A DNA stretch of 56,780 bases from Nitrospirota bacterium (GTDB taxonomy: Bacteria > Nitrospirota > Thermodesulfovibrionia > Thermodesulfovibrionales > UBA1546), in the NCBI GenBank assembly GCA_021824065.1, contig JAKALU010000005.1, forward strand, positions 1 through 56,780. Reading direction: 5' to 3'. How positions within the stretch are numbered: position 1 is the first letter of the stretch; every line of letters starts with the position of its first letter. Made by a program: the position numbers and the translations under genes. The notes below the pieces were generated by a model, which had not been told where the DNA came from, did no database searches, and saw nothing but the letters and a program-made list of their open reading frames with translations. Below are positions 24,179-48,976 of the stretch, in pieces.

Positions 24179-25266
24179 ACCTTTACCCCCTCTGCCTGAG
24201 AAGAGACAATCACCATGTCGTATTTCATCGGGAAGATGTCTTTCGACTTATCTCTTTTCGGGATTGCGCTGTCCAGACCGCATTCTTCAGACATTAATGC
24301 ATATTTACCTTTTACCCCGCCTACAACACCAGGTCGCAGCTTTTTGGAATCATGGAGCATAAAACATGCGCCGTCAGGGGTATATCCTATGACAACGTTA
24401 GGTCCATCAATACAGAGCGGCCTCAATGACTGTTTGATTAGCCTTAATGCATCGCTGTCTTTTCTTTGTTCTATCTCTGAAGGTTTCAGCGGTGTAATGA
24501 CATCTTTATAATAAGTTAATGGAAACCCCAATTGTCTTACAGTGTAGTGAAGTATGTGTGTGAATGTCTCGCTATCACTGTTATAGCCCATGTAGCCGGG
24601 AAAACCTCTGGACATGAGAAATTCCCTTATAGGAACGAACGCTGTATTTTCGCCGTTTGTCATAGAGCAAAAGCCCTGGATGAAAAATGGATGACATGCA
24701 TAAAGATAGATCTGGTAATTGGTGTTCTGCCTGCCCTGTGCAAATATAACCTTTGCTTTAAGCCCGTTTCTGTCAAGACCAAAAAATTCTCCAAGCTGAA
24801 GGGGGTCACCAACCTCTTTAAGTGTTATTACATCAGGGTAAAATGAAAACACAAATATTGATTCATCAGGCTCGCCGATTTTTCTGAGCGCAAGACGGGT
24901 GTTCATAAGAAGGTCTTCTTTTTCGTGCATGGGTTTATTTCTATAGTGCGCAGGATAGTCATAAACCCTTGCAAAATAGTAGTCCCGGGGAATCACACCT
25001 TTAACTTTTTTTATCTTTGGTGTCCACACGTGTTTAAGTTTAAACCCGTGTTTATCCATAAACTCATCAAGCACCCCGATCCCTTCTTTAGAGCAGATGC
25101 CGGACATTACGGGGTATCCTTTAAATTCCTCAAATTCTCCGCCGAGGTCTTTAAGTGTGAGGCCAAGACCTGAGCCATCATGCCCTTCCTTCATTGTCTC
25201 GAGAGCAAGGATGTTCTCCATTGGTGAGAAGTATTTATTAGATGTTATAGCAGCAAGTCTGCACAT
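24157..25266 (-). CDS. Glutamate synthase glutamine amidotransferase (Ntn, class II) subunit
   Basis: N-terminal M-C nucleophile, GHDGSG, NGE, SDSE, DGP, LRP. Confidence 0.88.
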   Translation of the reverse strand: MCRLAAITSNKYFSPMENILALETMKEGHDGSGLGLTLKDLGGEFEEFKGYPVMSGICSKEGIGVLDEFMDKHGFKLKHVWTPKIKKVKGVIPRDYYFARVYDYPAHYRNKPMHEKEDLLMNTRLALRKIGEPDESIFVFSFYPDVITLKEVGDPLQLGEFFGLDRNGLKAKVIFAQGRQNTNYQIYLYACHPFFIQGFCSMTNGENTAFVPIREFLMSRGFPGYMGYNSDSETFTHILHYTVRQLGFPLTYYKDVITPLKPSEIEQRKDSDALRLIKQSLRPLCIDGPNVVIGYTPDGACFMLHDSKKLRPGVVGGVKGKYALMSEECGLDSAIPKRDKSKDIFPMKYDMVIVSSQAEGVKVWNQLKG

Positions 25267-28131: not shown

Positions 28132-28197
28132 CTTTTGGGTAATAAATACTTAATCAATGCCCAAAAGAATTAAGTATTGCTTTATTTGGAGGTTAAG

Positions 28198-29868: not shown

Positions 29869-31192
<1,324 letters not shown>

Positions 31193-31193
<1 letters not shown>

Positions 31194-32518
31194 TGAAGAC
31201 AACAAAGGTATTGGAAAAGGCAAAAAAAGATAAGGTGATTTTTATAAACCTTCAGTTTACAGACATGCTGGGCTGTCTGAAGGAAGTAACTGCGCCTGTT
31301 CAAAATCTCCCTGACATAATGAAATACGGTGCATGGTTTGATGGTTCTTCTGTAGAGGGATTTGCAAGGATTCATGAAAGCGACCTTTATCTCAAGCCTG
31401 ATCCGGATACCTATGCAATTATTCCATGGTTGAGTTCTCCGGATGGAAATACAGCAAGGCTCATATGTGATATTTACATGCCTGACGGCAGCCCGTTTGA
31501 AGGAGATCCAAGGTTTATTTTAAAGAAGACTCTAAAAAAGGCTTCTGATATGGGTTTTGAATATGATGTAGGGCCTGAGCTTGAATTTTTCCTGTTTAGA
31601 AACGGTGCCGAGAAACTTACACCTATGGACAGCGGCGGTTATTTTGACCTTGCCAGCGATGAGGCGCATACCATAACAAGGGAGATAACAACTTCCCTTG
31701 AAATGTTTGGAATAGATGTTGAGGCATCACATCATGAGGTTGCACCAGGCCAATGCGAGATAGATTTTAAATATGGAGATGCCCTTAAAACTGCTGATAG
31801 GCTTTTAACATTGAGGGTAACTGTAAAGGCTATTGCACAGAGACATGGATTAAGGGCGTCTTTTATGCCCAAGCCGGTTATGGGCATGGCTGGTTCTGGC
31901 ATGCATGTCCATCAGAGCCTTTTTAACATTAAAACAAAAAAGAATGCATTTTATGACCGCAGTGATAAGTATAAGCTTTCAAAGACTGCATATAATTTTA
32001 TTTCAGGGCAACTCCACAACATAAAGGGAATGACAGCAGTTTTGTGCCCTACAGTTAATTCATATAAAAGGCTTGTAACAGGATTCGAGGCGCCTGTATA
32101 TATCTCATGGGCAAGGATAAACAGGTCAGCCCTTATAAGGGTTCCCCACTGGTTTGAGGATAAACCAAACTCAGCGCGGATAGAACTGAGATGTCCTGAC
32201 CCTGCATGCAATCCATATTTGGCATTTGCTGTGATGCTGGCAGCAGGGCTTGACGGCATTAAGAAAAACCTGAAATTGTCAGAACCTGTAGAGGAAAATC
32301 TGTATAAATTCGATGAAGAAAGACTCGCATCAATGAACATAGATACTCTCCCATCATCTTTGTATGAGTCAATAAATGAGCTTAAAAATAATAAGCTGAT
32401 ACAGGATGCGCTGGGGAAACACCTGTACAAAAGGTATATTCACATAAAGACAAAAGAATGGAATGAATTCAAGATGCAGGTGACAGAATGGGAGAGAGAG
32501 AAGTATCTGGATATATAA
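31193..32518 (+). CDS. glnA: Glutamine synthetase type I
   Basis: FDGSS, GPELEFF, HHEVA, FMPKP, GSGMHVH, NRSALIR, IELRCPD. Confidence 0.97.
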
Positions 32519-32544: not shown

Positions 32545-32850
32545 TCATGCAACCTTTGAGTATTCTTTTACTTCTTTTTCGAGCCGTTCACCGAGTTCCT
32601 CTGCCGTAACATCAAGGTCATACTGAGACTGCAACCCGAGCCAGAACTCTGAGGATGTTCCAAAGAACCTTGCCAGTCTGAGGGCAGTATCTGCCGTAAT
32701 CTTTCTTTTTCCGAGGATTATCTCGTTTATCCTCCGGGGAGGTACGCCTATATTCAGGGCAAGCCTGTTCTGGCTCAAACCCATAGGCTTAAGAAATTCC
32801 TCGAGAAGAACTTCGCCGGGGTGTACGGGTTTTAATCTTTTCTTTTTCAT
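32545..32850 (-). CDS. higA: HigA addiction module antidote
   Basis: PVHPGEVLLEEFL, ITADTALRL, FWLGLQ. Confidence 0.93.
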   Translation of the reverse strand: MKKKRLKPVHPGEVLLEEFLKPMGLSQNRLALNIGVPPRRINEIILGKRKITADTALRLARFFGTSSEFWLGLQSQYDLDVTAEELGERLEKEVKEYSKVA

Positions 32851-32860
32851 GTCTCACTCC

Positions 32861-33142
32861 TTAATGGTAATCTGTTATTTCGACATAGTACGCATCGCTA
32901 CCTTTCCAGATAAAACAGATGCGCCATTGGTCATTAATCCTTATGCTATACTGTCCTGCACGATTGCCAGCCAGCTTCTCAAGTCTATTCGCTGGAGGAA
33001 TTCTTAAGTCATTGATGCTCTGAGCATTGTTGATCATTCTTAATTTCCTCAATGCAATCTGCTGTATATCGCTCGGTAATTTTCTTGACCCTTCTCTGTG
33101 ATATATCTTCTCAGTCTCGCTATCCCGAAACGATTTGATCAT
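32861..33142 (-). CDS. higB: HigB/RelE-like toxin
   Basis: MIKSF, PPANRLEKL, SIRINDQWRICF, EITDYH; TAACGC-N3-GCGTTA palindrome upstream. Confidence 0.93.
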   Translation of the reverse strand: MIKSFRDSETEKIYHREGSRKLPSDIQQIALRKLRMINNAQSINDLRIPPANRLEKLAGNRAGQYSIRINDQWRICFIWKGSDAYYVEITDYH

Positions 33143-34468: not shown

Positions 34469-35620
34469 ATGAAGAAAAGTTTTACGGTTATTTTGCTTCT
34501 GGTATTAGCCGCAATTAGCTATATAGTATTCAGTGGAGTCCCGGGTTACGGAGGGGCTACAGCTCCAGGTTATGGGGGTTCAACATCGACTGCTGCGTCT
34601 GCAGAAAAGGCAGTAGCGGTAGAAGCAAAAGAGATAAAGGCAGCCAAGGAACCAAAATTTAACGCTATTGCTTATATAGCAGGACACGGCGGTCATCTGG
34701 CAGTTATTGACCTCAGGACTATGAAGGCCCCGGTGGACATGGAAAAGGGCAGGATTGTTCTTACAGAAGCTGGCTCTGAGATGGAAGGCAAGATTGCCGG
34801 CATGAGCTTTGAAGAGGTTAAGAAGGCTGGCGGTTCTCACGGTCAAGCGCTCATAAAACAGAAGGGTAAAAAGGTTTTGGTTGCCGGTACATTGGCTGGC
34901 AATGTCTATAAGGTTGATCTCAGCACAGGGAAAAAGGAAGGACCCTTTAAGGTAGGAGAGAAGTTCTGCGGCGCTATAGTCGGCCCTGATGGCAATATTT
35001 ACCTTGAGGATATGGCAGACGGTCATATATACATTTGGGATGCAAACAAGTTGAAGACTGTAGACAAGATGCCTGTAGGCAAAGCGCTATGCGGTATCCA
35101 ATGGACTAAAGGTGCTAAGAAAGCATACATTACCGATATGCCTGTGGGTGTAGTTTACGTCTATGACTGGAAGACTAAGAAAAAGATAAAGGAAATCAGC
35201 AGCCCTGAGATGACATTTATTCACCAGGCCAGAATGACCCCTGATGGGAAATATCTCTGGGTAAGCGCTCCAAATGAGTTTGACCCAGGGCTTAAACCAG
35301 GCACACACAAGAGCCAGGTCATTATTATTGACACCGCCAAAGATGAGATCGTTAAACGTATAATTCTACCTGATAATGTAAGACCTCACGACTTTGCATT
35401 TACCAAAGACGGTAAATATGCTTTCCTTTCATCCAGGACATATGGGGATGACAGCACACTAAACATAATGGATATGAAAAACTACAATATTGTAGGGAAA
35501 GTGTCAGCATGCGCTGAATGCCATAAGGCTGCAGGAGTAACGGTCAAAGTCGATAAAGGCTCACCACTTCTTTGCGGTATAGAGGTTGATTGGAGTCCAG
35601 CAAAGGTGGCTAAGAAGTAA
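34469..35620 (+). CDS. Secreted YncE/YVTN-like beta-propeller with C-terminal CXXCH heme motif (paralog 1)
   Basis: Signal peptide; AGHGGH; TPDGKY and TKDGKY blades; CAECH; LLCG. Confidence 0.75.
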   Translation: MKKSFTVILLLVLAAISYIVFSGVPGYGGATAPGYGGSTSTAASAEKAVAVEAKEIKAAKEPKFNAIAYIAGHGGHLAVIDLRTMKAPVDMEKGRIVLTEAGSEMEGKIAGMSFEEVKKAGGSHGQALIKQKGKKVLVAGTLAGNVYKVDLSTGKKEGPFKVGEKFCGAIVGPDGNIYLEDMADGHIYIWDANKLKTVDKMPVGKALCGIQWTKGAKKAYITDMPVGVVYVYDWKTKKKIKEISSPEMTFIHQARMTPDGKYLWVSAPNEFDPGLKPGTHKSQVIIIDTAKDEIVKRIILPDNVRPHDFAFTKDGKYAFLSSRTYGDDSTLNIMDMKNYNIVGKVSACAECHKAAGVTVKVDKGSPLLCGIEVDWSPAKVAKK

Positions 35621-35638
35621 ATTTAAAACTCTGAACTT

Positions 35639-35674
35639 AAGGGCTGGAGAATGTAAAGTTTTCCAGCCCTTTTT
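35639..35674 (+). terminator. Intrinsic terminator
   Basis: AAGGGCTGGA..TCCAGCCCTT followed by a T run. Confidence 0.7.
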
Positions 35675-35712
35675 ATGTCAATAGACATTACTATTGTATA
35701 ATTAACTATATA

Positions 35713-36918
35713 ATGAAAAAGATAAAAATCTTCAGCCTTGCCGTAAGAAACCTGAGAAGAAAATTCGTCCGTACATTTGTATTACTTCTGGTAGTTGCAG
35801 TAGTTACCGGCACATTGCTCAGTGCGACTATTTTCATAACCGGGATGAAGAATGCCATGAAGATTGGCACCTATCGACTTGGTGCAGATGTGCTTGTAGT
35901 ACCCGAGAAAAATGAATCTCAGGCAAAAGCAGCGCTGCTTGCTGGTGAGCCAACAAGCTTTTATATGGATAGGGATGTCCTTGAAAAAGTAAAAAAGATT
36001 GAAGGGGTAAAAAAGGCGTCTCCGCAGCTTTTTCTCAAACCATCGTCTTTCACCTGTTGTTTTAATGTAGATGTTTTTCTTGTGGCCTTTGAACCTAAGA
36101 CAGATTTTACAATAACTCCGTGGCTTGAAAAAAATCTTAAGAAACCTCTTGCAGGCAATGAGATTATAACAGGCAGGGAAATACCAGTTGTTGTAGGGGA
36201 TACAATCCCATTTTTTGGAGCACCCTTTAACGTTGTTGGCACTATGGAACCTACAGGCATGAAATTTTTTGACCAGACGGTTTTTATGACTATGGACGCA
36301 GCATATACCATGGCTGAAAACTCAAAGACTAAGTCAATGCAGCCAATCGATATAGCTAAGGATAAGATTTCAGCAGTGCTGGTTCAGGTTCAGGAAGGCT
36401 ATACCCCTGAAAGGGTTGCTATAAGAATAGAACATGATATTGAGGGGATTAAGGCGATCGCATCAGACGAGGTTATAAGTACGGTGCGAAGACAATTGAA
36501 CGGACTGCTGAGGGGGATACTCGCAATAAGCGCTGTATTATGGATACTGGCTCTTTTAATGATGGGTTTTGCATTCTATATGATTGTTAATGAGAGACAG
36601 AGGGAACTCGGTCTGCTAAGAGCGATGGGAGCGAAAAAGGGACATATTTTCAGCCTGATAATAACAGAGGCTGTCATGATATCTTTTATAGGCGGTGTTA
36701 TCGGATTAATAAGCGGTTATATGCTTTTGCTTACGTTTAAAAGTCTTATACTCCACAGCCTGAAATTACCATACCTTTTACCTCCTGTAATGGTTCTTAT
36801 TGAACTTCTGTCCGGTGCAATTATATTCTCTATGCTTACAGGGCTTCTATCATCCCTGTTGCCTGCTGTCTCTGCAAGCAAGATGGAGCCGTATGAAGCA
36901 ATTAGAAAAGGAGAATAA
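35713..36918 (+). CDS. MacB/FtsX-type ABC permease with periplasmic Cys-Cys motif (paralog 1)
   Basis: RLGADVLVVP, FTCCF, ERQRELGLLRAMGA, four TM segments. Confidence 0.88.
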   Translation: MKKIKIFSLAVRNLRRKFVRTFVLLLVVAVVTGTLLSATIFITGMKNAMKIGTYRLGADVLVVPEKNESQAKAALLAGEPTSFYMDRDVLEKVKKIEGVKKASPQLFLKPSSFTCCFNVDVFLVAFEPKTDFTITPWLEKNLKKPLAGNEIITGREIPVVVGDTIPFFGAPFNVVGTMEPTGMKFFDQTVFMTMDAAYTMAENSKTKSMQPIDIAKDKISAVLVQVQEGYTPERVAIRIEHDIEGIKAIASDEVISTVRRQLNGLLRGILAISAVLWILALLMMGFAFYMIVNERQRELGLLRAMGAKKGHIFSLIITEAVMISFIGGVIGLISGYMLLLTFKSLILHSLKLPYLLPPVMVLIELLSGAIIFSMLTGLLSSLLPAVSASKMEPYEAIRKGE

Positions 36919-36928
36919 GGGAGGAGAA

Positions 36929-37570
36929 ATGAAAATAGGTAATTTAATGATGACTATAAGGCTATGTATACCGGGTATGCTGATTATTGTTTTGCTATCA
37001 GTTATTTCATGCAAGAAGGAACAACCTATTCCAGAAAAAAGGCCGGTTCAGGCTATAAATCCATATTCAAGCGATTCTGTTTTTGCTGAAGTGAAAGAGA
37101 AATTACAAAAAAATCCCGATGATGTGGATGCACTATATCATCTTGCCGACCTGTATGACCGTAACGGGCAATATGCCGAAGCCATAGATGCATATAAAAA
37201 AGTGATAAAATTAAAGCCCGATATGGGATATGCATATTTTAAAATGGGCACAGCATATGATCGTCTCAATCAGCCTGCGGAGGCAATAAATGCGTTAAAG
37301 AAGGCTATAAAATATATGCCCAACTATGCAGCGTCATACAATAATCTTGGTATAGCTTACGGCAAGCTTAATAGATTTAATGAAGAAATAGCAGCTCTGA
37401 AAAAGGCGATAAAACTAAGGCCGACATATTCATCAGCCAGATATAATTTAGGTATCACATATTTAAAGACAGGGAATAAAAAGGCTTCTATGCAGGAATA
37501 TGAATCCTTAAAGAATTTTGACGAAGGCGCTGCAGAGGCTTTATTAAAAGAGATAAAAAGTGCTTCATAA
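36929..37570 (+). CDS. TPR lipoprotein
   Basis: GGAGG RBS before ATG 36929; LLSVISC lipobox-like; several TPR repeats (AYFKMG, SYNNLG, ARYNLG). Confidence 0.85.
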   Translation: MKIGNLMMTIRLCIPGMLIIVLLSVISCKKEQPIPEKRPVQAINPYSSDSVFAEVKEKLQKNPDDVDALYHLADLYDRNGQYAEAIDAYKKVIKLKPDMGYAYFKMGTAYDRLNQPAEAINALKKAIKYMPNYAASYNNLGIAYGKLNRFNEEIAALKKAIKLRPTYSSARYNLGITYLKTGNKKASMQEYESLKNFDEGAAEALLKEIKSAS

Positions 37571-37592
37571 AGAGATAAAAAGTGCTTCATAA
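37549..37592 (+). repeat. Perfect 22-bp tandem duplication of the TPR gene's 3' end
   Basis: AGAGATAAAAAGTGCTTCATAA twice. Confidence 0.9.
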
Positions 37593-37616
37593 GGACTAAG
37601 CTAAAAAATATAGTAT

Positions 37617-38282
37617 ATGATTGAGATCAAAAATCTTATAAAAACTTACAACATAGGCGGGCAGACCATTAAGGCTGTGGATAATGTAAGTTTGATGATT
37701 GAAAAAGGAGATCTCGTATCAATAGTCGGACATTCTGGCAGCGGGAAGACCACACTCTTGAGTCTAATAGGGGGGTTGACAATGCCTGCTTCGGGCTCTG
37801 TCATAATTGACGGAATAGATATATGGTCTATGGGCGATGACAAGCTTTCTGAGTTCAGGAATAAAAAGATCAGCTTTATATACCAGTTTTCGAGCCTTAT
37901 TCCAACCCTGACAGTTCTTGAAAACGTGATGCTTCCAACTGCTTTTGGATCTCATGATGAAAATGCAGAAGAGTATGCAAAGAAACTTCTTGATACAGTT
38001 GGACTGAAAGATAAGATGACTTCATATCCCTCACAACTTTCAGGCGGGCAGCAAAGGAGGGTTGCTATTGCAAGGGCATTTATTAATAAACCCGAGATTA
38101 TCCTTGCTGACGAACCCACCGGAGACCTCGATGAGGAGACAGAAAAAGAAATCTTAAGCCTTTTTCACAGTATGAATAGAGAAAAAAATATAACTTTTGT
38201 TATCGTAACCCACGATAAGGAGATTGCAAACCAGGCCAAAAGGAAATTAAAAATGGGTAATGGTTCTATTAAAGAACTATAA
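37617..38282 (+). CDS. ABC ATP-binding protein (LolD/MacB-like, paralog 1)
   Basis: GHSGSGKT, LSGGQ, ILADEPTG, VTH. Confidence 0.93.
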   Translation: MIEIKNLIKTYNIGGQTIKAVDNVSLMIEKGDLVSIVGHSGSGKTTLLSLIGGLTMPASGSVIIDGIDIWSMGDDKLSEFRNKKISFIYQFSSLIPTLTVLENVMLPTAFGSHDENAEEYAKKLLDTVGLKDKMTSYPSQLSGGQQRRVAIARAFINKPEIILADEPTGDLDEETEKEILSLFHSMNREKNITFVIVTHDKEIANQAKRKLKMGNGSIKEL

Positions 38283-38529: not shown

Positions 38530-39666
38530 ATGAAAAAAGTTTTGGTATTGCTTTTTGCTGTATTGTTTGTCTGCGCAGGATACCTTGCCTTCACTACCAT
38601 TGATTCCAAGACACCCGCTGTTGTAGCTGCAAAAAAGACATATTCAGCCACTGTTTATGTAGCTGGACACGGTGGTCACTTTGCCAAGGCAGATGTGACT
38701 ATAGACCCAAATGACGCTGATAACCCGATAAAGATAAACAGTCTTGATAAGGTTGATATCGGGACAACAGCAACCCACAAAACCCATGATGCGCGTATAG
38801 ACGCCACTGACAGCAACATTCTATTCTGGTCAACATATGCGTTAGATGACAAAGGAAAGCAGCATGTGGGCAAGTCCGACCTGAAAACAGGCAAGGTTAT
38901 TACGGATATAGCGATGGATCCAGACCCAAGGGCTCCTGGAAAGACAGGACCGATTTACTGTGCATCAGGGCAGAGCAAAAAAGATTTTATGCCGGTATTT
39001 ATGGGTAGCGAGGCATATGTCGATGTATTTGATAAGAAAACAATGGAACATAAACACAGGGTGTTTATAAGCGACCTCGGCTATAAGCCTGGCACCTATC
39101 AGTTTTTGCATGGGATTAACTCCAATGATATGAAGAAATTCCTTCTCACCATAACTATGAAGGGTGAGGATGGGAAGATGAACGGGAAGCTGGACTTTGT
39201 AATGGTTGATCTCCCATCCCTTGAGAAGGGCAAATTCAAGGAGCTTGCAAGAAACACATTGAGCGGCGAACCTGGAAAGACCATCACCTTCAGACAGTAT
39301 TTCAGCAAGGATGATAAATTAATCTTTCAGTCAGCTGCAGACAGAGTCTGGGTAATGGATGCAGCCACCCTTAAGCTCGTAGATGAAAAAACGACAGGCG
39401 CTAATGGTCAGAACCATGATGTAATGCCAACCCCTGATGGTAAATATGCTCTCCTGACCCTTAGAACCACTACCGCAGCAGTTGGTGCGGATGGGAAGGC
39501 AATTGAGGGCAAAACCATCACAGATGGTACATTGATGCTCTATGATGCTGATGCCAAAAAACTCGTGGGCAAACCTACATCAACCTGTTTAGGATGTCAC
39601 CAAAACATGGCACTTGGTGATAAGAATGCGATTCTTTGCGGCTTAGACGCCAACTATAAAAAATAA
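38530..39666 (+). CDS. Secreted beta-propeller-like protein with C-terminal CXXCH heme motif (paralog 2)
   Basis: Signal peptide; YVAGHGGH; PTPDGKY; CLGCH; ILCG. Confidence 0.72.
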   Translation: MKKVLVLLFAVLFVCAGYLAFTTIDSKTPAVVAAKKTYSATVYVAGHGGHFAKADVTIDPNDADNPIKINSLDKVDIGTTATHKTHDARIDATDSNILFWSTYALDDKGKQHVGKSDLKTGKVITDIAMDPDPRAPGKTGPIYCASGQSKKDFMPVFMGSEAYVDVFDKKTMEHKHRVFISDLGYKPGTYQFLHGINSNDMKKFLLTITMKGEDGKMNGKLDFVMVDLPSLEKGKFKELARNTLSGEPGKTITFRQYFSKDDKLIFQSAADRVWVMDAATLKLVDEKTTGANGQNHDVMPTPDGKYALLTLRTTTAAVGADGKAIEGKTITDGTLMLYDADAKKLVGKPTSTCLGCHQNMALGDKNAILCGLDANYKK

Positions 39667-39679
39667 CTGCTTTCTTTTT

Positions 39680-39718
39680 ATTCTTTCTATGCGGCTGACA
39701 AAGCCGCATAGAAAGAAT
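39680..39718 (+). terminator. Long hairpin / terminator
   Basis: TTCTTTCTATGCGGCT/AGCCGCATAGAAAGAA perfect inverted repeat. Confidence 0.7.
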
Positions 39719-39748
39719 TTCTTATAATCATTTATAATAAATTAAAAT

Positions 39749-40945
39749 ATGATGAAAAAATTCACGCTATTTTCACTTGCGCTTAAAAACCTCAAAAGGA
39801 AGCCTTTAAGAACAAGTATACTGGTCATCGCGATAGGACTATTGGTATCTGCTTTTGTATTTGCATTATCTTTTGTCAGGCGCGTTGACTCAAGTATCAA
39901 AATTACTTCTGAACGGCTCGGCGCTGACCTGCTTATAGTACCTACAGGATCGAGAGGGGCAGCAGAAGATGTCCTGCTCGAAAATGAGGTGAAGTCATTT
40001 TATATGGATAAAGGTATTGTAGAAAGGGTGAAGAAGATCAAAGGTGTAGACGAATTAACATACCAGACCTATCTTGTTACCATAACAGGTGCTTGCTGTG
40101 ATGTGCCTGAGTCTATAGTTATTGCATTTAACCAGGATACTGATTTCATTATTAAGCCCTGGCTTAATAAAAAGTTGGGCAGGAGGCTTCAAAAAGGTGA
40201 AGCTATTGTTGGCAGTGAGTCGGCTTTTAACATCAGGATAGGGCTCACAGAGGTGGATAGCGTCCTGTTCGGGAATATGTTTAAAATGGTTGGTGTTCTC
40301 GACAAAACAGGAACAGGGCTTGATAACGCCATATTCATCGATGATGAAAATATAGCTGATATAGTGAGGGGAGGCAAGGCGAATATAAAATCAGGGCAGA
40401 TATCCCTCATTTTTGCAAAGATCAAAAAAGGTCATGATCCTTACAAGGTTGCCGGCGAGATTGAGGATTCCATAATAGAAGTAGACGCAGTAGCAAGAAA
40501 GGATATCGGCAAGAATATAATAAATACACTGAGAGATATAAACCGGATATTCTCTATTACAGTGATACTTGCCTCCATACTCTCTGTATTTCTTGTCTGG
40601 GCTGTTTTTTCTGCAATTGCTAATGAGAGGGCAAAAGAAATTGGAATCATGAGGGCTATTGGTGCAAAGGAATACCATGTTGTAAGGCTTTTTTTTCTTG
40701 AGGTTTTGGTTATCGGCAGTATTGGAAGTATCATCGGCATTATCTCCGGGACTGTCCTTTCTTTATTGATGGCAAAGAGTTTCACCATTCTGAAAAATTT
40801 AGCTGCGGACTTAAACACCGTGGAGCGTGTTTTCATAGCTACATTAAGTTTCTTGATTGGAACAGTGGTCTGTGTTGCTGGAGCCCTTTCACCAATCCAG
40901 AGAATAAAAAAACTGGAACCACTTTTAGCAATAAAAGAGGAATAA
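39749..40945 (+). CDS. MacB/FtsX-type ABC permease with periplasmic Cys-Cys motif (paralog 2)
   Basis: RLGADLLIVP, GACCD, ERAKEIGIMRAIGA. Confidence 0.88.
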   Translation: MMKKFTLFSLALKNLKRKPLRTSILVIAIGLLVSAFVFALSFVRRVDSSIKITSERLGADLLIVPTGSRGAAEDVLLENEVKSFYMDKGIVERVKKIKGVDELTYQTYLVTITGACCDVPESIVIAFNQDTDFIIKPWLNKKLGRRLQKGEAIVGSESAFNIRIGLTEVDSVLFGNMFKMVGVLDKTGTGLDNAIFIDDENIADIVRGGKANIKSGQISLIFAKIKKGHDPYKVAGEIEDSIIEVDAVARKDIGKNIINTLRDINRIFSITVILASILSVFLVWAVFSAIANERAKEIGIMRAIGAKEYHVVRLFFLEVLVIGSIGSIIGIISGTVLSLLMAKSFTILKNLAADLNTVERVFIATLSFLIGTVVCVAGALSPIQRIKKLEPLLAIKEE

Positions 40946-40946
40946 T

Positions 40947-41621
40947 TTGTCACAGATAGAGATTATAGACATTACTAAGATCTATTCGATAGATAGTTTG
41001 AATATCAATGCTGTTGATAATGTTTCATTAAGGGTGGAGAAGGGTGAGTTCTTGTCTATAGTAGGGCATTCAGGCTCTGGCAAGACGACCCTGATCTCTA
41101 TTATCGGGGGTATAATAAGACCTTCCTCAGGAAAGATACTGTTTGATGGAACAGATATCTTTTCTTTCAATGACGAAAAATTATCGGGATACAGGAGCGA
41201 GAAAATCGGTTTTATGTTTCAGTTCTCAAGCCTTTTGCCGATTCTTACTGCAAAGGAGAATGTCCTTCTCCCGTGTCTTTTCAGCCCGGCGAAGAGGTCA
41301 GATAATGAAAAAAAGGCAATAGAATATCTTAATATGGTAGGTCTGAGTGATAAGATAAATGCATATTCATCACACCTCTCGGGAGGGCAGCAGAGGAGGG
41401 TTGCCATTGCGCGTGCATTGATGAACGACCCAGAAGTCATACTCGCTGATGAGCCCACAGGCGACCTTGATGAAAAGACAGAGGCTGATATAATGAAGTT
41501 CTTTAAGATAATGAATGAAGAAAGGGATATAACCTTTATTATGGTTACTCATAATACAGAGCTTGCAAGGCAGACTAAACGACAGTTGAAAATGAGTAAT
41601 GGTTCGATTAAGGAATTATAA
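40947..41621 (+). CDS. ABC ATP-binding protein (paralog 2)
   Basis: GHSGSGKT, LSGGQ, ILADEPTG; same NGSIKEL C-terminus as paralog 1. Confidence 0.93.
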   Translation: MSQIEIIDITKIYSIDSLNINAVDNVSLRVEKGEFLSIVGHSGSGKTTLISIIGGIIRPSSGKILFDGTDIFSFNDEKLSGYRSEKIGFMFQFSSLLPILTAKENVLLPCLFSPAKRSDNEKKAIEYLNMVGLSDKINAYSSHLSGGQQRRVAIARALMNDPEVILADEPTGDLDEKTEADIMKFFKIMNEERDITFIMVTHNTELARQTKRQLKMSNGSIKEL

Positions 41622-41688: not shown

Positions 41689-41991
41689 ATGATGAGAATA
41701 AGACCGAAAGTTAAAAAGGTGCTTGCATTGACATTACTATTAGGTCTGTTACCTTGTCTTGTGTTTCTCTTTTATCTTACTCCTGCCAAGAAAATGGATT
41801 CTTGTTTTTCATTTATGTCTATCGATGTCTGCGGCAGTCACGATATTCAGTCAACGGCTGTTTCGTTTGCGATTGTGCCTTTTTGCATACTTTTTATATT
41901 CTTTCTGACAATAAGCCGTCTCTCAGAATTTCAAACCTTTCTATACCGGGCAGTTCTCGCTTATTCACTGGATAAGCCCCCTTTAATTTAA
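41689..41991 (+). CDS. Small Cys-containing membrane protein ending in DKPP (possible leader peptide)
   Basis: N-terminal TM, IDVCGSHD, C-terminal LDKPPLI. Confidence 0.5.
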   Translation: MMRIRPKVKKVLALTLLLGLLPCLVFLFYLTPAKKMDSCFSFMSIDVCGSHDIQSTAVSFAIVPFCILFIFFLTISRLSEFQTFLYRAVLAYSLDKPPLI

Positions 41992-42362
41992 AATCCGTTC
42001 TTTGTCTGCTGTAAATCTTACATCTGTATAAGTATCAGGAAGAGTTACATCTGTTTGTGTAAGGATGGCAGGCAAGGATTTCTCCCCGTTAAATGCCCTG
42101 CCTCGGTTTTCGGGGCAGGGACTTTCTGAACAATTGACTATTCAAAAATTATCCTTGATAAATTTAAAATTATAACTATAATTATGTATATAAATTTCAA
42201 TTATAAAGGGTTGTGGATTTTTCAAGACAGCTTTCTGGATTAAAAGAGCAAAGTTCCCCAGTTGTGTTTCCTTTCCGGGAACTGGAAAGGGAGGTGATGT
42301 CTATCGAGAGTCTGCGATAGTAGTTGTTCAATAGTTTTAAGAATTTAATAAAAGGAGGGTTT

Positions 42363-43562
42363 ATGAGGTTTTTGAAATTGATTCTCATACTGCTTTTTAT
42401 GGCAGTCCCGCTTATAGCATCTGCGGAGAAAGCAAAGACGATTGATGAACTTGCCAAAATGTACGACTCATCAAGGTGTAAGGAATGCCATGAAAGTATT
42501 TACAAACAGTGGGAAAATTCTCATCATGCAAGGCCATTGATGGGTGTAAAAGGCGGCTTGATGCTGACACCCCTTGCTACAAAGGGTGCAACCGCTTTTT
42601 CTCCCGATGACCCTAAGAAGGCAACGATAAAGAATTTCCCGTGCTTTAAATGCCATCTCCCGCAGGCAATTACATCAGCAGAGGATTCGGTTGCAGTTGA
42701 GTTAGCCGAGGCGCTTCTTGCAAAAGATTCGACTAAAGTCGCTAAGCTTCAGATCACCTGTATTGTCTGTCACAATACAAAGGCGATTATTCACAAACGC
42801 GAATTAGGCGAGCCAAAGGCAGGCGTTCTTTACAGCTCAAAGGCAGTAGATTCTCACCCTGACGGGATATTCAAAAAAGTTGAAAAGAGCGCTATCATGA
42901 AGGATTCAGTATACTGCGGGCAGTGCCACGGCCTCGGCCCGAATCTCGAGTTTGACCAGGCATTCCAGTGCGCAAACCTTTATGGAAGCTATCTCCATTC
43001 CTACATACCTTCAGGCGCGTCACAGACATGTATGGACTGTCATATGCAGAAGGGTGATCATCTTATAGCCCCTAACTTTAATGACGATAAGGGAACATCA
43101 GAGCTTCTTGCAAAGGCAATCAGCCTCGATGTCCAGACTTTAGGATACGAATGGTTGCTAAAGGCAGGAACATATGTTCCTAAGGTCGTGGTTAATACGA
43201 AGATAACCACAACCGCTGGCCACAGAATCCCTGACGGCTGACCATCGCACAACAGAGTGGTCATGGTAGTGACCGCAAAGGCAGCAGATGGTAAAGAGTT
43301 GGGCAAAGTTGAAAAACACTATCACCCTCAGGCAACAAACTGCCGTGATACAAAGATGAGGTATGGTGCACAGTGGAAAGTTGCAAACCTGCGTGACACA
43401 AGCCTACAGCCTGCTCAGGCCAAAAAAGAGTCAATAGAATTTGATCTTCCAGCAGGCGTAAGAGAAGCAACTGTGACAGTTGATCTTTTCTACGAGAATG
43501 TCAATCCTGGTAATAAGTACTCAATACATTCGATAACAAGGAAAGTATCTCTCGACAGATAG
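42363..43562 (+). CDS. extKL: Penta-heme c-type cytochrome selenoprotein, ExtKL-like (UGA at 43239-43241 read as Sec)
   Basis: Signal peptide; five CXXCH (CKECH, CFKCH, CIVCH, CGQCH, CMDCH); GHRIPDG-TGA-PSHNRVV continues in frame into the 43257-43562 ORF. Confidence 0.88.
43257..43276 (+). promoter_or_regulatory. Bacterial SECIS-like hairpin
   Basis: GTGGTCA TGGTAG TGACCGC stem-loop starting 15 nt after the UGA, with a G-rich loop. Confidence 0.7.
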
Positions 43563-43578: not shown

Positions 43579-43613
43579 AAATGCTGTGCCTGCATTATGC
43601 AGGCACAGCATTT
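43579..43613 (+). terminator. Intrinsic terminator
   Basis: AAATGCTGTGCCTGCA/TGCAGGCACAGCATTT perfect inverted repeat. Confidence 0.75.
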
Positions 43614-43780
43614 ATTTTGAATTAATCCGCCTTTGTTGCCAAATATTTAGGCTTAATTTATATCTTTATATAGCGTGGCAATTATCTCTTGACTATTTAT
43701 TATTTTTTGTGCTAAAAAAAGACGCTTAATATCAGGGGATAAATTAAGAAGTATTTGACTAAATAATGCAGGAGGGGAAG

Positions 43781-44053
43781 ATGGGAAAGAAAGTTGCAGT
43801 GCTCATTAGGAATAATCAGGATGAAGGATTCAGAATGTCTGTCGGTCTTACGCTTGCTGACGATGAAGTGAACGTGTTTCTCATGGACAAAAAACTTGAA
43901 TCAGGCGAAAATATCGACCTCAATGTTGAGACCCTTGGCGATTTGGATGTTAAGCTGTTTTCCAATAATCCTGAAAATAGTAAATTTCAGCAGATGAATA
44001 CCGAAGAGATTGGCAAGGCATTAGCAAATTATGATGCTGTAATCACATATTGA
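43781..44053 (+). CDS. DsrE/DsrF-like sulfur relay protein
   Basis: KKVAVLIR..EGFRMSVGL..VNVFL..YDAVITY fold pattern; next to tusA. Confidence 0.6.
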   Translation: MGKKVAVLIRNNQDEGFRMSVGLTLADDEVNVFLMDKKLESGENIDLNVETLGDLDVKLFSNNPENSKFQQMNTEEIGKALANYDAVITY

Positions 44054-44240: not shown

Positions 44241-44489
44241 ATGGAAGAAGATATTAAGCCTGATAAGAAGATAAACATAAAAGGCCTTGTGTGTCCTTAT
44301 ACATTTGTGAAGGCAAAGCTTGCAGTCGAGGATATGGAGGTCGGACAGGTTATCGAGATTTTGCTCGACTATGAGGAGGCATCAAGGAGCATACCAAAAT
44401 CAATGGAAGATCATGGGCAGAAGGTCCTGAAAGTAGAAAAGATAAATGACACAGATTGGATATTGCTTATCAGGAAAGAGAAGGAATAA
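44241..44489 (+). CDS. tusA: TusA/SirA family sulfurtransferase
   Basis: GLVCPYTFVKAKL, GQVIEILLD. Confidence 0.88.
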   Translation: MEEDIKPDKKINIKGLVCPYTFVKAKLAVEDMEVGQVIEILLDYEEASRSIPKSMEDHGQKVLKVEKINDTDWILLIRKEKE

Positions 44490-44523
44490 GCCTGTCTAAT
44501 ATTATCAGGATGGGGGTAATGAT

Positions 44524-45324
44524 ATGGAGTTTACAGAAGACCAGTTACAAAGATATAGTCGTCATATAATACTGCCGGAGGTTGGCGGTAAAGGCCAGAG
44601 AAAATTGCTGCATGCAAAGGTTTTTATTGTCGGTGCAGGTGGTCTTGGATGCCCTGTGGGATACTATCTTGCTGCTGCTGGTGTTGGCACCATTGGAATG
44701 GTAGACAACGACACAGTTGAGTTGAGCAATCTTCAGAGGCAGATAGCTCACAGCACTAAGACCCTTGGCATACACAAGGTTGACTCTGCAAAGGCGACCT
44801 TTGAAGCCTTGAACCCTGATATTAAGGTGGTAGGCATAAAAGACCGGATTTCAAAGGATAATATTAAGGATTTGATAAAAAACTATGATATTGTGGTGGA
44901 TGGCAGTGATAATTTCCCGACAAGGTATCTTGTAAATGATGCATGCGTGATGCTCAAAAAGCCCCTTGTCAGCGGTGCGATTTTGAAATTTGAAGGGCAG
45001 GTCACAACCATTCTTCCCGGCGAAGGTCATTGCTATAGATGTCTCTTTGAGGAAATGCCCCCCCCGGGCCTTGTGCCTTCTTGCCAGGAGGCAGGTGTAA
45101 TTGGAGCTATACCTGGTGTTGTTGGTTCCCTTCAGGCCATTGAGGTTGTCAAACTGATACTTGGGAAGGGTGATGTCTTAAAGAATACCCTTTTGATATA
45201 CGATGCCTTAAAGACAACATTCCGGCGCGTTAAAGTGCCTAAGAATCCGCATTGTCCTGTATGCGGAGATAATCCGACTATTACAGAATTGCGGGATTAC
45301 GATGCAGAGTACTGTAGAATTTAA
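44524..45324 (+). CDS. moeB: MoeB/ThiF E1-like adenylyltransferase
   Basis: RYSRHI, GAGGLG, SNLQRQ, DGSDNF, CYRC, CPVC; no rhodanese domain. Confidence 0.92.
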   Translation: MEFTEDQLQRYSRHIILPEVGGKGQRKLLHAKVFIVGAGGLGCPVGYYLAAAGVGTIGMVDNDTVELSNLQRQIAHSTKTLGIHKVDSAKATFEALNPDIKVVGIKDRISKDNIKDLIKNYDIVVDGSDNFPTRYLVNDACVMLKKPLVSGAILKFEGQVTTILPGEGHCYRCLFEEMPPPGLVPSCQEAGVIGAIPGVVGSLQAIEVVKLILGKGDVLKNTLLIYDALKTTFRRVKVPKNPHCPVCGDNPTITELRDYDAEYCRI

Positions 45325-45344
45325 TTGCTTTACTTAAGCACTAA

Positions 45345-45746
45345 ATGAACGAATTAATCATTCCTCAACAAATCCTCGAAGATATGCTTGTCTACTGCAA
45401 GGGTATGTATCCAAACGAGGCGTGTGGTATTCTTGCAGGGAGGAACAATGAAGCTTTAAAGATTTATAAAATGACCAATATTGAAAATTCTCCTGTAAGT
45501 TATATGATGGATTCGATGGAGCAATTTAAGACTATGAAGGATATGCGTGAAAATAATCTATCCATGCTGGCAATCTTTCATTCCCATCCATCCTCAGCAG
45601 CATACCCCTCGCAGAAGGATTTAAGCCTTGTTTTTTACGAGGATTCTGTTTATGTTATTGTGAGCCTGATAGAAAAAGAACCGATTGCGAAGGGTTTTTT
45701 GATAAGAGAAGGAAGTATAAAAGAGATTGATATCATTGTGAGATAG
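45345..45746 (+). CDS. JAMM/MPN+ (Mov34, Mec-like) metalloprotease
   Basis: PNEACG; HSHP..AYPS.KD. Confidence 0.9.
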   Translation: MNELIIPQQILEDMLVYCKGMYPNEACGILAGRNNEALKIYKMTNIENSPVSYMMDSMEQFKTMKDMRENNLSMLAIFHSHPSSAAYPSQKDLSLVFYEDSVYVIVSLIEKEPIAKGFLIREGSIKEIDIIVR

Positions 45747-45936
45747 GCCAAGGACGATACCAAAGTTCAGTTGTAAAGATTTCAGTAAATCTGCATGGAG
45801 AGGGCAAATCAGTCCTGCTTTTATGGTGTTAGCTGTCAATCCCTTTAATTTTATATTCAATTTGGAGTAGAATATACCTTACTTTTTCTAAAGGTTTCCA
45901 GCATAGTTTTTTCACTGGATTAAACAGGAGGTGTTT

Positions 45937-47175
45937 ATGGGATATGTAAGTGGTCTTAAGTGCAGAGAGTGCGGCAGGGAATATCCTGTTGATCCCATAT
46001 ATGTCTGCGAATTCTGTTTCGGACCATTAGAGGTTGTCTATGACTACAAAAAAATAAAGCGTGTATTGACAAGAAAGAACATAGAGAAGAGGGAGAATAA
46101 TCTCTGGAGGTATAAGGAGCTTCTGCCCATAGATGGAGAGCCGCAGGTAGGCTTGAACTCAGGGTTTACACCTCTTATAAAGGCCGATAACCTTGCAGGC
46201 GAACTCGGGATTAAGGAATTATATATAAAGGACGATACTGTCGCCCATCCAACCCTCTCATTTAAAGACAGGGTTGTGGCAGTCGCACTAACAAAAGCAA
46301 AAGAGTTCGGGTTTGATACAGTTGCATGCGCTTCTACTGGTAACCTGGCCCATTCTGTGTCTGCCCACGGAGCTAAAGCAGGTTTTAAGAGATTTGTTTT
46401 TATCCCCGCAACACTTGAGCCGAGCAAGATTGTCGCATCCCTTGTGTATGAGCCAAATCTGATTGCTGTTGACGGGAACTACGACGAGGTTAACAGACTC
46501 TGCAGCGAGATAGCCAATAAATATAAATGGGCATTTGTGAACATAAATATAAGACCCTTCTACGCAGAAGGTTCAAAGACACAGGGATTTGAGATTATAG
46601 AGCAGTTAGGGTGGAAAGCGCCTGATAATGTTGTTGTGCCGTGTGCCAGCGGTTCACTCTTAACAAAGGTATGGAAGTCATTTAAAGAATTTAAAAAAAT
46701 AGGGATATTGAAGAAGCTTGATACAAAGGTCTTTGCTGCACAGGCAACAGGCTGCTCTCCGATATCTCTTGCAATAAAGCAAGGTACAGATGTAATAAGG
46801 CCTGTGAAGCCAAATACTGTTGCAAAATCCCTTGCAATTGGCAATCCCGCAGATGGATTTTATGCTATTCAAGCTGTAAAGGAAAGCAGAGGATACGGTG
46901 AAGATGTTTCAGATGAGGAAATAATTGAGGGAATAAAAATGCTTGCAAGGGCCGAGGGTATTTTTGCAGAGACCGCAGGTGGTGTTACACTTGCCTGCAC
47001 GAAGAGGCTTATCGAAACAGGGAAGATAGGAAGGGATGAAACAACAGTTATATGCATTACTGGCAATGGGCTTAAAACACAGGAGGCATTGGATGGGCAT
47101 ACAGCGGCACCGCATTACATAAAACCAAATCTCGCATCTTTTGAAGAGGTGCTGAAAAAGATAGGAGGTAAATGA
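45937..47175 (+). CDS. Threonine-synthase-like PLP enzyme (sulfur-carrier-linked paralog)
   Basis: N-terminal CREC/CEFC Zn ribbon, PTLSFKDR, ASTGNLA, TGNGLK; overlaps moaD. Confidence 0.85.
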   Translation: MGYVSGLKCRECGREYPVDPIYVCEFCFGPLEVVYDYKKIKRVLTRKNIEKRENNLWRYKELLPIDGEPQVGLNSGFTPLIKADNLAGELGIKELYIKDDTVAHPTLSFKDRVVAVALTKAKEFGFDTVACASTGNLAHSVSAHGAKAGFKRFVFIPATLEPSKIVASLVYEPNLIAVDGNYDEVNRLCSEIANKYKWAFVNINIRPFYAEGSKTQGFEIIEQLGWKAPDNVVVPCASGSLLTKVWKSFKEFKKIGILKKLDTKVFAAQATGCSPISLAIKQGTDVIRPVKPNTVAKSLAIGNPADGFYAIQAVKESRGYGEDVSDEEIIEGIKMLARAEGIFAETAGGVTLACTKRLIETGKIGRDETTVICITGNGLKTQEALDGHTAAPHYIKPNLASFEEVLKKIGGK

Positions 47176-47456
47176 TGGCAGTAAAGGTAAGGATTCCGAC
47201 ACCGCTGCAGAGATTAACGCAAGGGAAAGAAGAAGTTGATGGTGTGTCAGGCACCATAATGGAACTTGTCACAGACCTTGATAAAAGATTTCCAGGTATA
47301 GGTGAGAGGATATCCGAGGGGGGTAAGGTAAGGAGGTTTGTTAATATTTATGTTAACGAAGAGGACATAAGGTTTCTTAAGGCAGAGGATACGATTGTCA
47401 AGGATGGCGATGAGGTTTCCATAGTCCCTGCAATTGCAGGAGGGGCACGGCAGTGA
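47172..47456 (+). CDS. MoaD/ThiS/CysO-family ubiquitin-like sulfur carrier with a 3-aa extension after GG
   Basis: VRIPTPL, FVNIYVNEEDIR, VPAIAGG-ARQ. Confidence 0.9.
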   Translation: MMAVKVRIPTPLQRLTQGKEEVDGVSGTIMELVTDLDKRFPGIGERISEGGKVRRFVNIYVNEEDIRFLKAEDTIVKDGDEVSIVPAIAGGARQ

Positions 47457-47525
47457 ATAGTAGTTAGTGAACAGTAAATATAGAAATTTAAAACTATTCG
47501 CTGACGACTGTTCACTATTCACTAA
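47451..47525. repeat. Inverted pair of 7-mer arrays
   Basis: gtgaata gtagtta gtgaaca gtaaata versus tattcgc tgacgac tgttcac tattcac. Confidence 0.7.
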
Positions 47526-47538
47526 ACAAGGAGGATTT

Positions 47539-47775
47539 ATGAAGAAGCGTGTTAAATTGACCTTCCCTCAGCGTTTAATCAAAGAGCCTGTTATATTTAC
47601 AATGGCTAAGAAGTATGATGTGATGCCTAATATCAGGAGGGCAAGGGTAACAGAAACGGTAGGAGAAATGGTTCTTGAACTCGAAGGAACAGAAGAAAAT
47701 CTTGAAAAAGGTATAAAGTCCCTGAGAGAGCAGGGTGTAGAAGTTGAACTTGTAGAAGGAGACATCATAGAGTAA
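47539..47775 (+). CDS. Stand-alone NIL domain protein
   Basis: LTFP..IKEPVI..PNIRRA.V..GEMVLELEG; GGAGG RBS before ATG 47539. Confidence 0.82.
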   Translation: MKKRVKLTFPQRLIKEPVIFTMAKKYDVMPNIRRARVTETVGEMVLELEGTEENLEKGIKSLREQGVEVELVEGDIIE

Positions 47776-47863
47776 AATTCTGAATTCGAAATTCTAAGTC
47801 CTAAATGTTTGTGGAATTTGAACTTGTTTAGAATTTAGATATTAGATATTAGGATTTGAGATT
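47776..47863. repeat. Inverted pair of 7-mer arrays
   Basis: ttctgaa ttcgaaa ttctaag tcctaaa versus tttagaa tttagat attagat attagga tttgaga. Confidence 0.7.
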
Positions 47864-47887
47864 ATAATTTCTGATTCAAGGAGAGTT

Positions 47888-48976
47888 ATGGAAATAGGAG
47901 AGTGTAATAGTTCAAAAACTTCGTGGAGAGGAATAATTGAGGAATACCGAGAATTCCTTCCAGTCAGCAGTGACTCACCTGTTGTAACGCTTAGGGAAGG
48001 AAATACTCCACTAATAAAGGCGACGAACCTGAAAAGGAAGGGCATCGACCTCGAGGTCTATTTTAAATTCGAGGGCGCTAACCCAACAGGCTCTTTCAAA
48101 GACAGGGGCATGACGCTTGCCTTATCAAAGGCTGTTGAGGCGAGGTCAAAGGCAGTGATATGCGCATCAACAGGCAATACATCTGCGTCTGCTGCAGCTT
48201 TTGCAGCAAGGGCGGGTATAAAGGCAATAGTACTTATCCCTCAGGGAAAGATTGCTCTCGGCAAACTTGCTCAGGCACTCGTTCATGGTGCATATGTGAT
48301 TCAGGTAGAAGGCAATTTTGATGAGGCATTGAACATAGTTAAAGCACTTGTTGAAAGATATCCGATAACACTCGTGAACTCTATAAATCCATTTAGATTG
48401 GAAGGCCAGAAAACAGCTGCCTTTGAAGTCTGTGACCAACTTGGCTTTGTACCGAAATACCATGCGCTCCCTGTTGGTAATGCAGGGAATATTACTGCAT
48501 ACTGGAAAGGTTACAGGGAGTATCACAGTAGTGGAAAGATTTCATCGTTACCGATTATGCTGGGGTTTCAGGCAGCAGGTGCTGCACCGATTGTCAAAGG
48601 GCACCCAATAGAAAGACCTGAGACAATAGCAACTGCCATAAGAATCGGCAATCCAGCGAGCTGGAAAGGAGCAGTTGCGGCAAGGGATGAATCAGGCGGA
48701 AAGATTGAGGCTGTGACAGATGAAGAGATACTGAAAGCTTACAGCCTTATTGCATCAGTAGAAGGTATATTCTGTGAACCTGCATCTGCCGCATCATTGG
48801 CAGGTGTGATAAAGTTATATAAAGAAGGATATTTAAAAACAGGAGATACTGTTGTATGTACGCTTACAGGCCACGGGCTTAAAGACCCTGATACAGTATT
48901 CAGGGTGACAAAAGAACCGATGAAGGTTAAAGCAGAAATTGGAGAGGTAGAGAAGGCGTTAGAGGGAATAATATGA
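47888..48976 (+). CDS. thrC: Threonine synthase
   Basis: [39 protein letters not shown]. Confidence 0.93.

Follow-up and report, generated by a model that had tools for sequence, protein, structure and literature searches.

A characterized system of the kind treated here is a multiheme selenoprotein of Geobacter sulfurreducens. The product of its gene, GSU2937-2936 (extKL), has been renamed MccSep and was characterized as a homotetramer, periplasmic by fractionation, with five hemes and a selenium content of 0.96 per subunit (PMC13510729, Mihara et al., Sci Adv 2026). Here we describe a gene of the same family at positions 42363-43562 of a 56,780-nucleotide (nt) stretch of DNA from a Nitrospirota bacterium (GCA_021824065.1, contig JAKALU010000005.1). 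This whole stretch is called the window below. In it, an in-frame UGA codon divides one cytochrome coding sequence into two predicted open reading frames (ORFs).

In the Geobacter protein, read-through of the UGA was seen by Western blot and proven by mass spectrometry of the junction peptide ...AGHSIPDGUPTPNR, in which U is selenocysteine (Sec), and Edman sequencing verified signal-peptide cleavage ahead of EKAG (PMC13510729). The enzyme acts on polysulfide, its preferred substrate, and on selenite, and the mccsep gene is needed for Geobacter sulfur respiration. Structures are available as Protein Data Bank (PDB) entries 9wt8, 9wt9, 9wta, 9wtb and 9wtc. The ligands of heme 2 are H122 and C239, and U325 lies 3.6 Å from the C239 sulfur (PMC13510729). 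The variants U325A, U325C and C239H suffered a severe loss of activity, while Vmax was markedly down in K372A and R83A. Lys372 makes a water-mediated contact with Sec; Arg83 stands at the channel entrance and is not called family-wide. In the mechanism that the authors proposed, Sec attacks the substrate to give a Sec-Se-(S/Se)-S-Cys intermediate, which the heme chain then reduces (PMC13510729). The same work presents Geobacter as the representative of clade 1. The name ExtKL derives from the extHIJKL cluster of Geobacter (10.1101/169086; PMC5877670).

ExtKL (NF040886) also appears in the table of prokaryotic selenoproteins of a 2026 review (PMC13188914). Entries of the supplementary table of PMC13510729 mention Thermodesulfovibrionales 136 times, and the record there for the closest relative of the window gene (L042, 86 per cent identical) reads 'Sec (this study)', with read-through, clade 2 and a predicted periplasmic location. 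The 33-nt string given in that record for the selenocysteine insertion sequence (SECIS) differs from the window's by one base. The MccSep/ExtKL family and its Thermodesulfovibrionales clade are therefore already described, and the window gene is a correct rediscovery, given a curated NCBIfam model, the 2026 characterization and a supplementary table with close relatives from this order.

One gene across an in-frame UGA codon

We read 42363-43562 as a single, monocistronic gene whose product is a soluble, secreted pentaheme cytochrome c with selenocysteine, a member of the MccSep (ExtKL) family and, by homology, a periplasmic polysulfide reductase; we put the probability of this reading at about 0.9. 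The initial annotation, made from the sequence and a list of its ORFs, had proposed that two ORFs form a single pentaheme cytochrome of this family through UGA recoding; the family model and the relatives described below bear this out. Mechanical ORF calling gives 305 amino acids from a TTG (42324-43241), ending ...TTAGHRIPDG at TGA 43239-43241. Past this TGA the frame stays in phase (PSHNRVVMVVTAK..., PSHNRVVMVV...) as far as TAG 43560-43562, as had been noted. The true start is most likely ATG 42363, with AGGAGG 5' of it. From this ATG there are 292 amino acids ahead of the TGA and 399 in total with read-through.

With the TGA read through, the protein scores 448.5 bits against NF040886, 'multiheme c-type cytochrome (seleno)protein ExtKL', over model positions 26-422 of 423. 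This is an equivalog model with a curated cutoff of 250 bits, and membership of the family is thereby confirmed; a six-frame search of the genome with the same model gave 441.3 bits. When the two pieces are searched apart, the one before the TGA covers model positions 26-314 and the one after it 316-422. They are thus two halves of one protein, divided exactly at the Sec position. Pfam finds only generic multiheme signatures in the N-terminal piece and nothing in the downstream piece. A sequence search of the PDB returned the MccSep chains (9wt8, 9wt9 and three further entries) with E-values of 5.6e-71 to 9.6e-71. The alignment with 9wt9 pairs the Sec with residue 325, Cys203 with C239 and Lys339 with K372 (residues of the window protein are numbered from ATG 42363).

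A search with NF040886 covered 61 genomes from the same family or order. Forty matches lay above the cutoff, 31 of them with exactly one in-frame TGA and 9 without; of the latter, 1 is a fragment that falls short of the Sec column, and 3 of the 8 full-length matches were examined at it. Across the 20 best loci, the aligned column holds TGA in 17 and TGC (Cys) in 3. Neither TAA nor TAG closes any homolog that extends to this column. Fifty further loci came from a scan of GTDB species genomes, mainly from Nitrospirota/Thermodesulfovibrionales (the closest at 76-84 per cent identity) and Desulfobacterota. The pattern GH..PDG(U/C)P, which can detect only U or C at the site, is present in 67 of 68 loci (L022-L089), comprising 60 complete genes (57 with U and 3 with C) and 7 partial genes, all with U. 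The one locus that has no motif consists of an N-terminus only, and every full-length locus has it. Sequencing error and a pseudogene were both rejected as explanations of the TGA, given the identical codon in 31 of the 40 family matches. One homolog (L032, G031:C96) carries a TAG besides its Sec TGA, and its C-terminal part matches as a separate piece; it is either a decaying gene or the product of an assembly error.

The region just 3' of the UGA forms a SECIS-like hairpin. The initial annotation had described a 7-base-pair (bp) stem starting 15 nt after the UGA. The hairpin is real and its apical stem does begin at that distance, but the stem has 8 bp, including two G-U pairs, and closes on a GGUA loop. 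The UGA-to-loop gap is 23 nt, which fits the bSECISearch spacing rule of 16-37 nt. A 71-nt stretch has a folding energy of -22 kcal/mol (z = -2.15), equalled by 4 of 200 shuffles. To compare relatives, the UGA plus 63 nt was folded from each of the 20 aligned loci: the apical hairpin stands at the identical offset in 17/17 Sec-type loci and is absent at that position from 3/3 Cys-type loci, as expected of the SECIS-like element that had been proposed.

The 17 Sec-type stretches form a gapless alignment with a mean identity of 84 per cent. Compensatory changes occur in the apical stem (C-G to G-C once) and in the lower stem (A-U to G-C twice and A-U to G-U once), and the observed percentage of paired cells and covariation score were reached by 2 of 500 shuffles. 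Because the region is so similar among these sequences, counting covariation is weak, and we used entropy at synonymous sites instead. Inside the stem there is almost no change at fourfold-degenerate sites: the three third positions of this type have entropies of 0.64, 0.64 and 0.32 bits, against a mean of 1.57 bits for 49 sites elsewhere in the gene. The arrangement of hairpin and TGA is beyond chance, since the TGA column recurs in relatives (17 TGA and 3 TGC in 20 loci) and the fourfold sites of the stem hardly vary. In two relatives (L024 and L025) the gene terminator is also TGA, so that a single mRNA has UGA as Sec, with the hairpin, and UGA as stop. The reading of UGA is therefore context-dependent.

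All four sel genes (selA, selB, selC and selD) were found in the genome assembly (2.73 Mb, 96 per cent complete), in line with the recoding that had been proposed. The selA match (395 bits) ends at a contig end and the rest of the gene lies at another (C186:3-854 and C204:11392-11925; L001, L002), which indicates assembly fragmentation and not a broken gene. The selB match scores 381 bits. The selD gene (332 bits; C97:61139-62059, L011) has one in-frame TGA of its own and encodes a Sec-type SelD. ARAGORN calls a tRNA-SeC with the anticodon tca (UCA). Of 29 long frames in the window, TGA closes 8; the organism therefore has no general reading of TGA as a sense codon. An alternative code, with TGA as Trp or Gly, was rejected on the same count and on the Cys carried by the examined non-TGA homologs. 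With this machinery, the mRNA hairpin 3' of the codon would recruit SelB with Sec-tRNA(UCA), and the ribosome would decode UGA 43239-43241 as Sec293.

Heme ligands, active site and predicted fold

For the analysis of individual residues we used a 54-member alignment made from the 60 complete genes after dropping the window duplicate, a gene that is truncated and five others whose short starts are doubtful. The five CXXCH motifs and the PDG-U-P context had been recognized correctly in the initial annotation, and the five motifs are invariant in 54/54 members. So are H98, C203, U293 and K339, which the HMMER alignment maps to Geobacter H122, C239, U325 and Lys372. In the 54-member alignment, H55, H233 and H287 are invariant too, and H144 and H165 are nearly so; among these five His the four bis-His hemes may find their distal ligands.

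A downstream Cys in the sequence ATNCRD, now Cys327, had been suggested as the redox partner of the Sec. The family-wide partner is instead the upstream Cys203, the counterpart of the heme-ligating C239 in the Geobacter crystal structures. Cys327 is present in 20/54 members, namely all 20 of the window's own Nitrospirota subclade in the alignment. Being confined to that subclade, it is not the family's partner thiol, though it may have a clade-specific role.

The AlphaFold model (mean predicted local distance difference test score, pLDDT, of 78.2; predicted template modelling score of 0.70) has helices over residues 2-252 and strands over 253-396. Sec293 sits on a loop with strands 271-283 and 298-306 on either side. 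This agrees with how the crystal structure is described, as a helical heme domain and a C-terminal Ig-like beta-sandwich that carries the Sec loop. The model has one long stretch of low confidence (pLDDT below 50), and Cys327 lies in it. The top Foldseek match in the PDB is 5ze8, the pentaheme cytochrome c552 of Thermochromatium tepidum (E = 3.8e-14; template modelling scores 0.58/0.60). The Foldseek library runs to 2026-04-08 and predates the MccSep entries, and the link to MccSep comes from the sequence search of a newer PDB copy.

By eye, the N-terminus is hydrophobic, with ASA followed by EKAKT and without a lipobox Cys, and a soluble periplasmic protein is expected on that basis. Its N-terminal helical domain would carry all five hemes of c type, with the C-terminal beta-sandwich following. 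From this sandwich the Sec loop (PDG-U-P) would extend toward heme 2, whose distal ligand would be Cys203, not His. Homology with the Geobacter enzyme suggests a mechanism in which the selenolate attacks a polysulfide chain, the adduct is handed on to the heme-bound Cys thiolate, and electrons arriving through the heme chain break the Se-S-S bridge, setting sulfide free. The protein is thus likely to serve as a periplasmic polysulfide reductase; Sec insertion itself, this location, what it takes as substrate, its oligomeric state and its electron donor we infer rather than observe. The host genome has dsrA (550 bits) beside a dsrB-like gene (C160:2126-4354; L092, L093). In such a DsrAB-carrying, Thermodesulfovibrionales-like Nitrospirota, the enzyme would reduce polysulfide (elemental sulfur) in the periplasm.

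The features of the locus are collected in Table 1. With a promoter candidate upstream and a terminator-like hairpin downstream, the selenoprotein gene looks monocistronic.

Table 1. Features of the selenoprotein gene and its flanks, in window coordinates.
Feature	Coordinates	Strand	Remark
Sigma-70-like promoter candidate, TTGATA-16-TATAAT	42155..42182	+	11/12 consensus positions; consensus match only
Shine-Dalgarno AGGAGG ahead of ATG 42363	42353..42358	+	Read in sequence
One gene, 399-amino-acid pentaheme cytochrome c selenoprotein (MccSep/ExtKL family)	42363..43562	+	TAG stop included
Putative signal peptide, MRFLKLILILLFMAVPLIASA; AXA site ahead of EKAKT, no lipobox Cys	42363..42425	+	Sequence inspection; analogous to Geobacter MccSep, cleaved ahead of EKAG
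Heme 1 motif CKECH (C39-H43)	42477..42491	+	Invariant in 54/54
Heme 2 motif CFKCH (C94-H98), active-site heme	42642..42656	+	H98 = Geobacter H122
Heme 3 motif CIVCH (C133-H137)	42759..42773	+	
Heme 4 motif CGQCH (C185-H189)	42915..42929	+	
Cys203 codon, = Geobacter Cys239, distal ligand of heme 2	42969..42971	+	Alignment of FQCANLYGSY with TQCCTSYASY
Heme 5 motif CMDCH (C223-H227)	43029..43043	+	
UGA with predicted reading as selenocysteine (Sec293), motif GHRIPDG-U-PSHNR	43239..43241	+	
SECIS-like element	43241..43292	+	Lower stem 43241-43246/43287-43292; apical stem 43257-43264/43269-43276; loop GGUA 43265-43268
Cys327 codon (ATNC), specific to the window subclade	43341..43343	+	In segment with pLDDT below 50
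Lys339 codon, = Geobacter Lys372	43377..43379	+	HMMER alignment; invariant in 54/54
Intrinsic-terminator-like hairpin, 16 bp (8 G-C), then ATTTTG	43579..43613	+	

Weighing the readings

A number of observations weigh against a polysulfide-reducing selenoenzyme like that of Geobacter. Activity has been measured for the Geobacter enzyme, which belongs to clade 1, and the window protein falls with the clade 2 entries. The PDB alignment to MccSep ends at query residue 372 of 412, and the window clade is without two insertions that Geobacter-like sequences have in the C-terminal domain. HMMER treats Geobacter R83 as an insertion relative to the window protein, which has VKGG there and Lys63 one position earlier; an Arg is aligned at that column in 10/54 members and the window protein is not one of them. 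The hairpin shows sparse covariation: in 2 pairs both sides have changed, a count that 22 of 500 shuffles reach. Over codons +1 to +17 the mean fourfold entropy is 0.97 bits, against 1.57 bits elsewhere in the gene, and the Mann-Whitney p = 0.004 for this difference (7 versus 49 sites) overstates the case, related sequences having been counted as independent. A search of the whole window at Rfam gathering thresholds gave no match; this says little, because Rfam is not known to include a general bacterial SECIS model. The Geobacter partners ExtH (rhodanese), ExtI (porin), ExtJ and the ExtM/N/S cytochromes have no counterpart among the window's 53 ORFs by Pfam and NCBIfam. The gene aprA was not found in the 96 per cent complete assembly, a result that does not by itself show absence, and the sulfur physiology is accordingly outlined in part; the organism may live by sulfite or sulfur respiration, or by sulfur disproportionation, rather than by sulfate reduction. 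For the organism as a whole, the evidence is its DNA.

Several of these points feed an alternative in which the selenoprotein is the same and its physiological job is another: reduction of selenite or another chalcogen, or a part in sulfur disproportionation or oxidation, with Cys327 maybe as an additional thiol. We think this unlikely, though it deserves to be taken seriously. Selenite is also reduced by Geobacter MccSep (PMC13510729), the assayed enzyme is of the other clade, and the missing Arg83 and C-terminal insertions, the retention of Cys327 in 20/20 subclade members of the alignment, the presence of dsrAB without a detected aprA, and gene neighbours unlike those of Geobacter would all suit such a role. 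On the other hand, the mutagenesis triad of Sec, heme-ligating Cys and Lys372 is invariant in 54/54 members together with the heme-2 His, the match to the hidden Markov model is at equivalog level and far above the cutoff, and the placement of Cys327 relative to the Sec is not fixed by a model in which its segment has a pLDDT below 50. A further proposal, that the protein works in extracellular electron transfer as the part of a porin-cytochrome conduit at the outer surface, follows the first annotation of Geobacter ExtKL and has the origin of the family name in its favour (10.1101/169086; PMC5877670). It is very improbable here: the apparent signal peptide ends in ASA and there is no lipobox Cys, no porin, rhodanese or partner multiheme cytochrome is found among the 53 ORFs of the window, and Geobacter MccSep itself is periplasmic by fractionation (PMC13510729).

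It is barely credible that TGA 43239 is a true stop, leaving a truncated 292-amino-acid cytochrome and a separate small gene or decaying remnant. Standard gene calling does break the locus into two ORFs at this codon, GTG 43257 is a possible start for a 101-amino-acid ORF downstream of it, and the public annotation of the closest relative stops at the TGA, by its coordinates in the supplementary table of PMC13510729. But the downstream piece is in frame and takes up the family model at 316, right after the N-terminal piece ends at 314, the TGA column is shared by 31/40 family matches with Cys in the examined replacements, and the hairpin is conserved with frozen synonymous sites in a genome that has the full Sec machinery. 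Terminator-like matches between the TGA and the TAG are all weak, and the strong terminator lies 3' of the TAG, not of the TGA. Finally, read-through in Geobacter was demonstrated by Western blot and mass spectrometry (PMC13510729). We therefore keep the reading of a single selenoprotein gene. Its importance is mainly one of annotation: ordinary gene calling yields a truncated cytochrome and an orphan ORF, which hides the selenoenzyme. By homology, the selenoenzyme would also be a sign that an uncultured Nitrospirota lineage can reduce polysulfide or elemental sulfur; clade 2 enzymes are set apart from Geobacter's by Arg83, by the C-terminal insertions and by the genes around them.

Gene neighbourhood and relation to known systems

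No bc-type complex or large multiheme cytochrome, as found beside the Geobacter gene, was detected in the window, and in each of the other ORFs among its 53 CXXCH occurs at most once. Two tandem modules (34469-38282 and 38530-41621) lie upstream of the selenoprotein gene, each with a secreted beta-propeller protein, a MacB/FtsX-type permease and an ATP-binding cassette (ABC) ATPase. The first module additionally contains a TPR protein (36800-37570). The beta-propeller proteins have about 380 amino acids and a single C-terminal CXXCH, and are 25 per cent identical to each other over 161 aligned residues; they gave no solid Pfam family, with YncE and cytochrome d1 as leads only. The proximal module is also directly upstream of the selenoprotein gene in six relatives (L044, L045, L051, L054, L056 and L058). 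Downstream, at 43766-44053, is a 95-amino-acid protein that the Atlas places in small families whose commonest phylum is Nitrospirota, with a DsrE/DsrF-like cluster as a weak lead (0.81); it recurs close to the selenoprotein gene in L043, L045, L050 and L051. For the neighbours at 38530-39666, 41689-41991 and 43766-44053, Pfam and NCBIfam gave nothing usable even at E-values up to 10.

Farther along, 44241-48976 encodes TusA, a ThiF/MoeB-type E1 enzyme, a JAB peptidase, two ThrC-like enzymes (the first a pyridoxal phosphate enzyme), a ThiS/MoaD-like carrier and a NIL domain protein. This cluster looks like a pathway that makes sulfur amino acids and depends on a sulfur-carrier protein. Elsewhere in the window, an NrpR-type regulator, a PII protein and glutamine synthetase are consecutive at 29869-32518, near a glutamate-synthase-like gene set at 20095-25266 and 28177-29775. 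A HigB-like toxin with its HTH partner and two PIN-domain proteins are encoded at 32545-33142, 1265-1669 and 12633-13046.

One could imagine that Thermodesulfovibrionales-like Nitrospirota have an undescribed module for handling sulfur in the periplasm, with the clade 2 enzyme as its catalytic head and the syntenic, secreted monoheme beta-propeller protein, its MacB-type ABC transporter and the 95-amino-acid protein as partners. The clade 2 enzyme is without Arg83 and the Geobacter-type C-terminal insertions and has the conserved Cys327. We hold the idea to be improbable. If it were true, the module could provide what was left open by the Geobacter study, an electron donor or components for sulfur transfer, or could serve sulfur disproportionation.

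The authors of the MccSep study compared their enzyme with TsdA and SoxAX, which have a catalytic Cys on a c-type heme (PMC13510729). These proteins are unrelated in sequence to MccSep, have no Sec and act in thiosulfate oxidation. Cytochrome c552 of T. tepidum (5ze8) shares the two-domain pentaheme layout of the window protein and matches it weakly in sequence (E = 5.7e-5), but it is only 19 per cent identical and falls outside NF040886. Nearer still are the Cys-type homologs of the same order (L034, L036 and L038), which belong to the same family, have five hemes and the motif GHR-x-PDG-C-PSP, and are 37-44 per cent identical to the window protein. Unlike the window gene, they have TGC in place of TGA and no hairpin at that position of the mRNA.

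Geobacter MccSep remains the closest characterized system. The window protein differs from it in grouping with the clade 2 entries in the supplementary table of PMC13510729, and in its length, 399 amino acids against a chain of 450 residues. It has no Arg aligned with R83, and it has the extra, subclade-specific Cys327. The two nevertheless share the five CXXCH motifs, the GH-x-x-PDG-U-P motif and a SECIS-like hairpin just 3' of the UGA. They also have in common the heme-ligating Cys (C239 in Geobacter, C203 here), the Lys (Lys372 and K339), a signal peptide ahead of EKA (putative in the window protein) and, in the predicted model of the window protein, a helical heme domain followed by a beta-sandwich.

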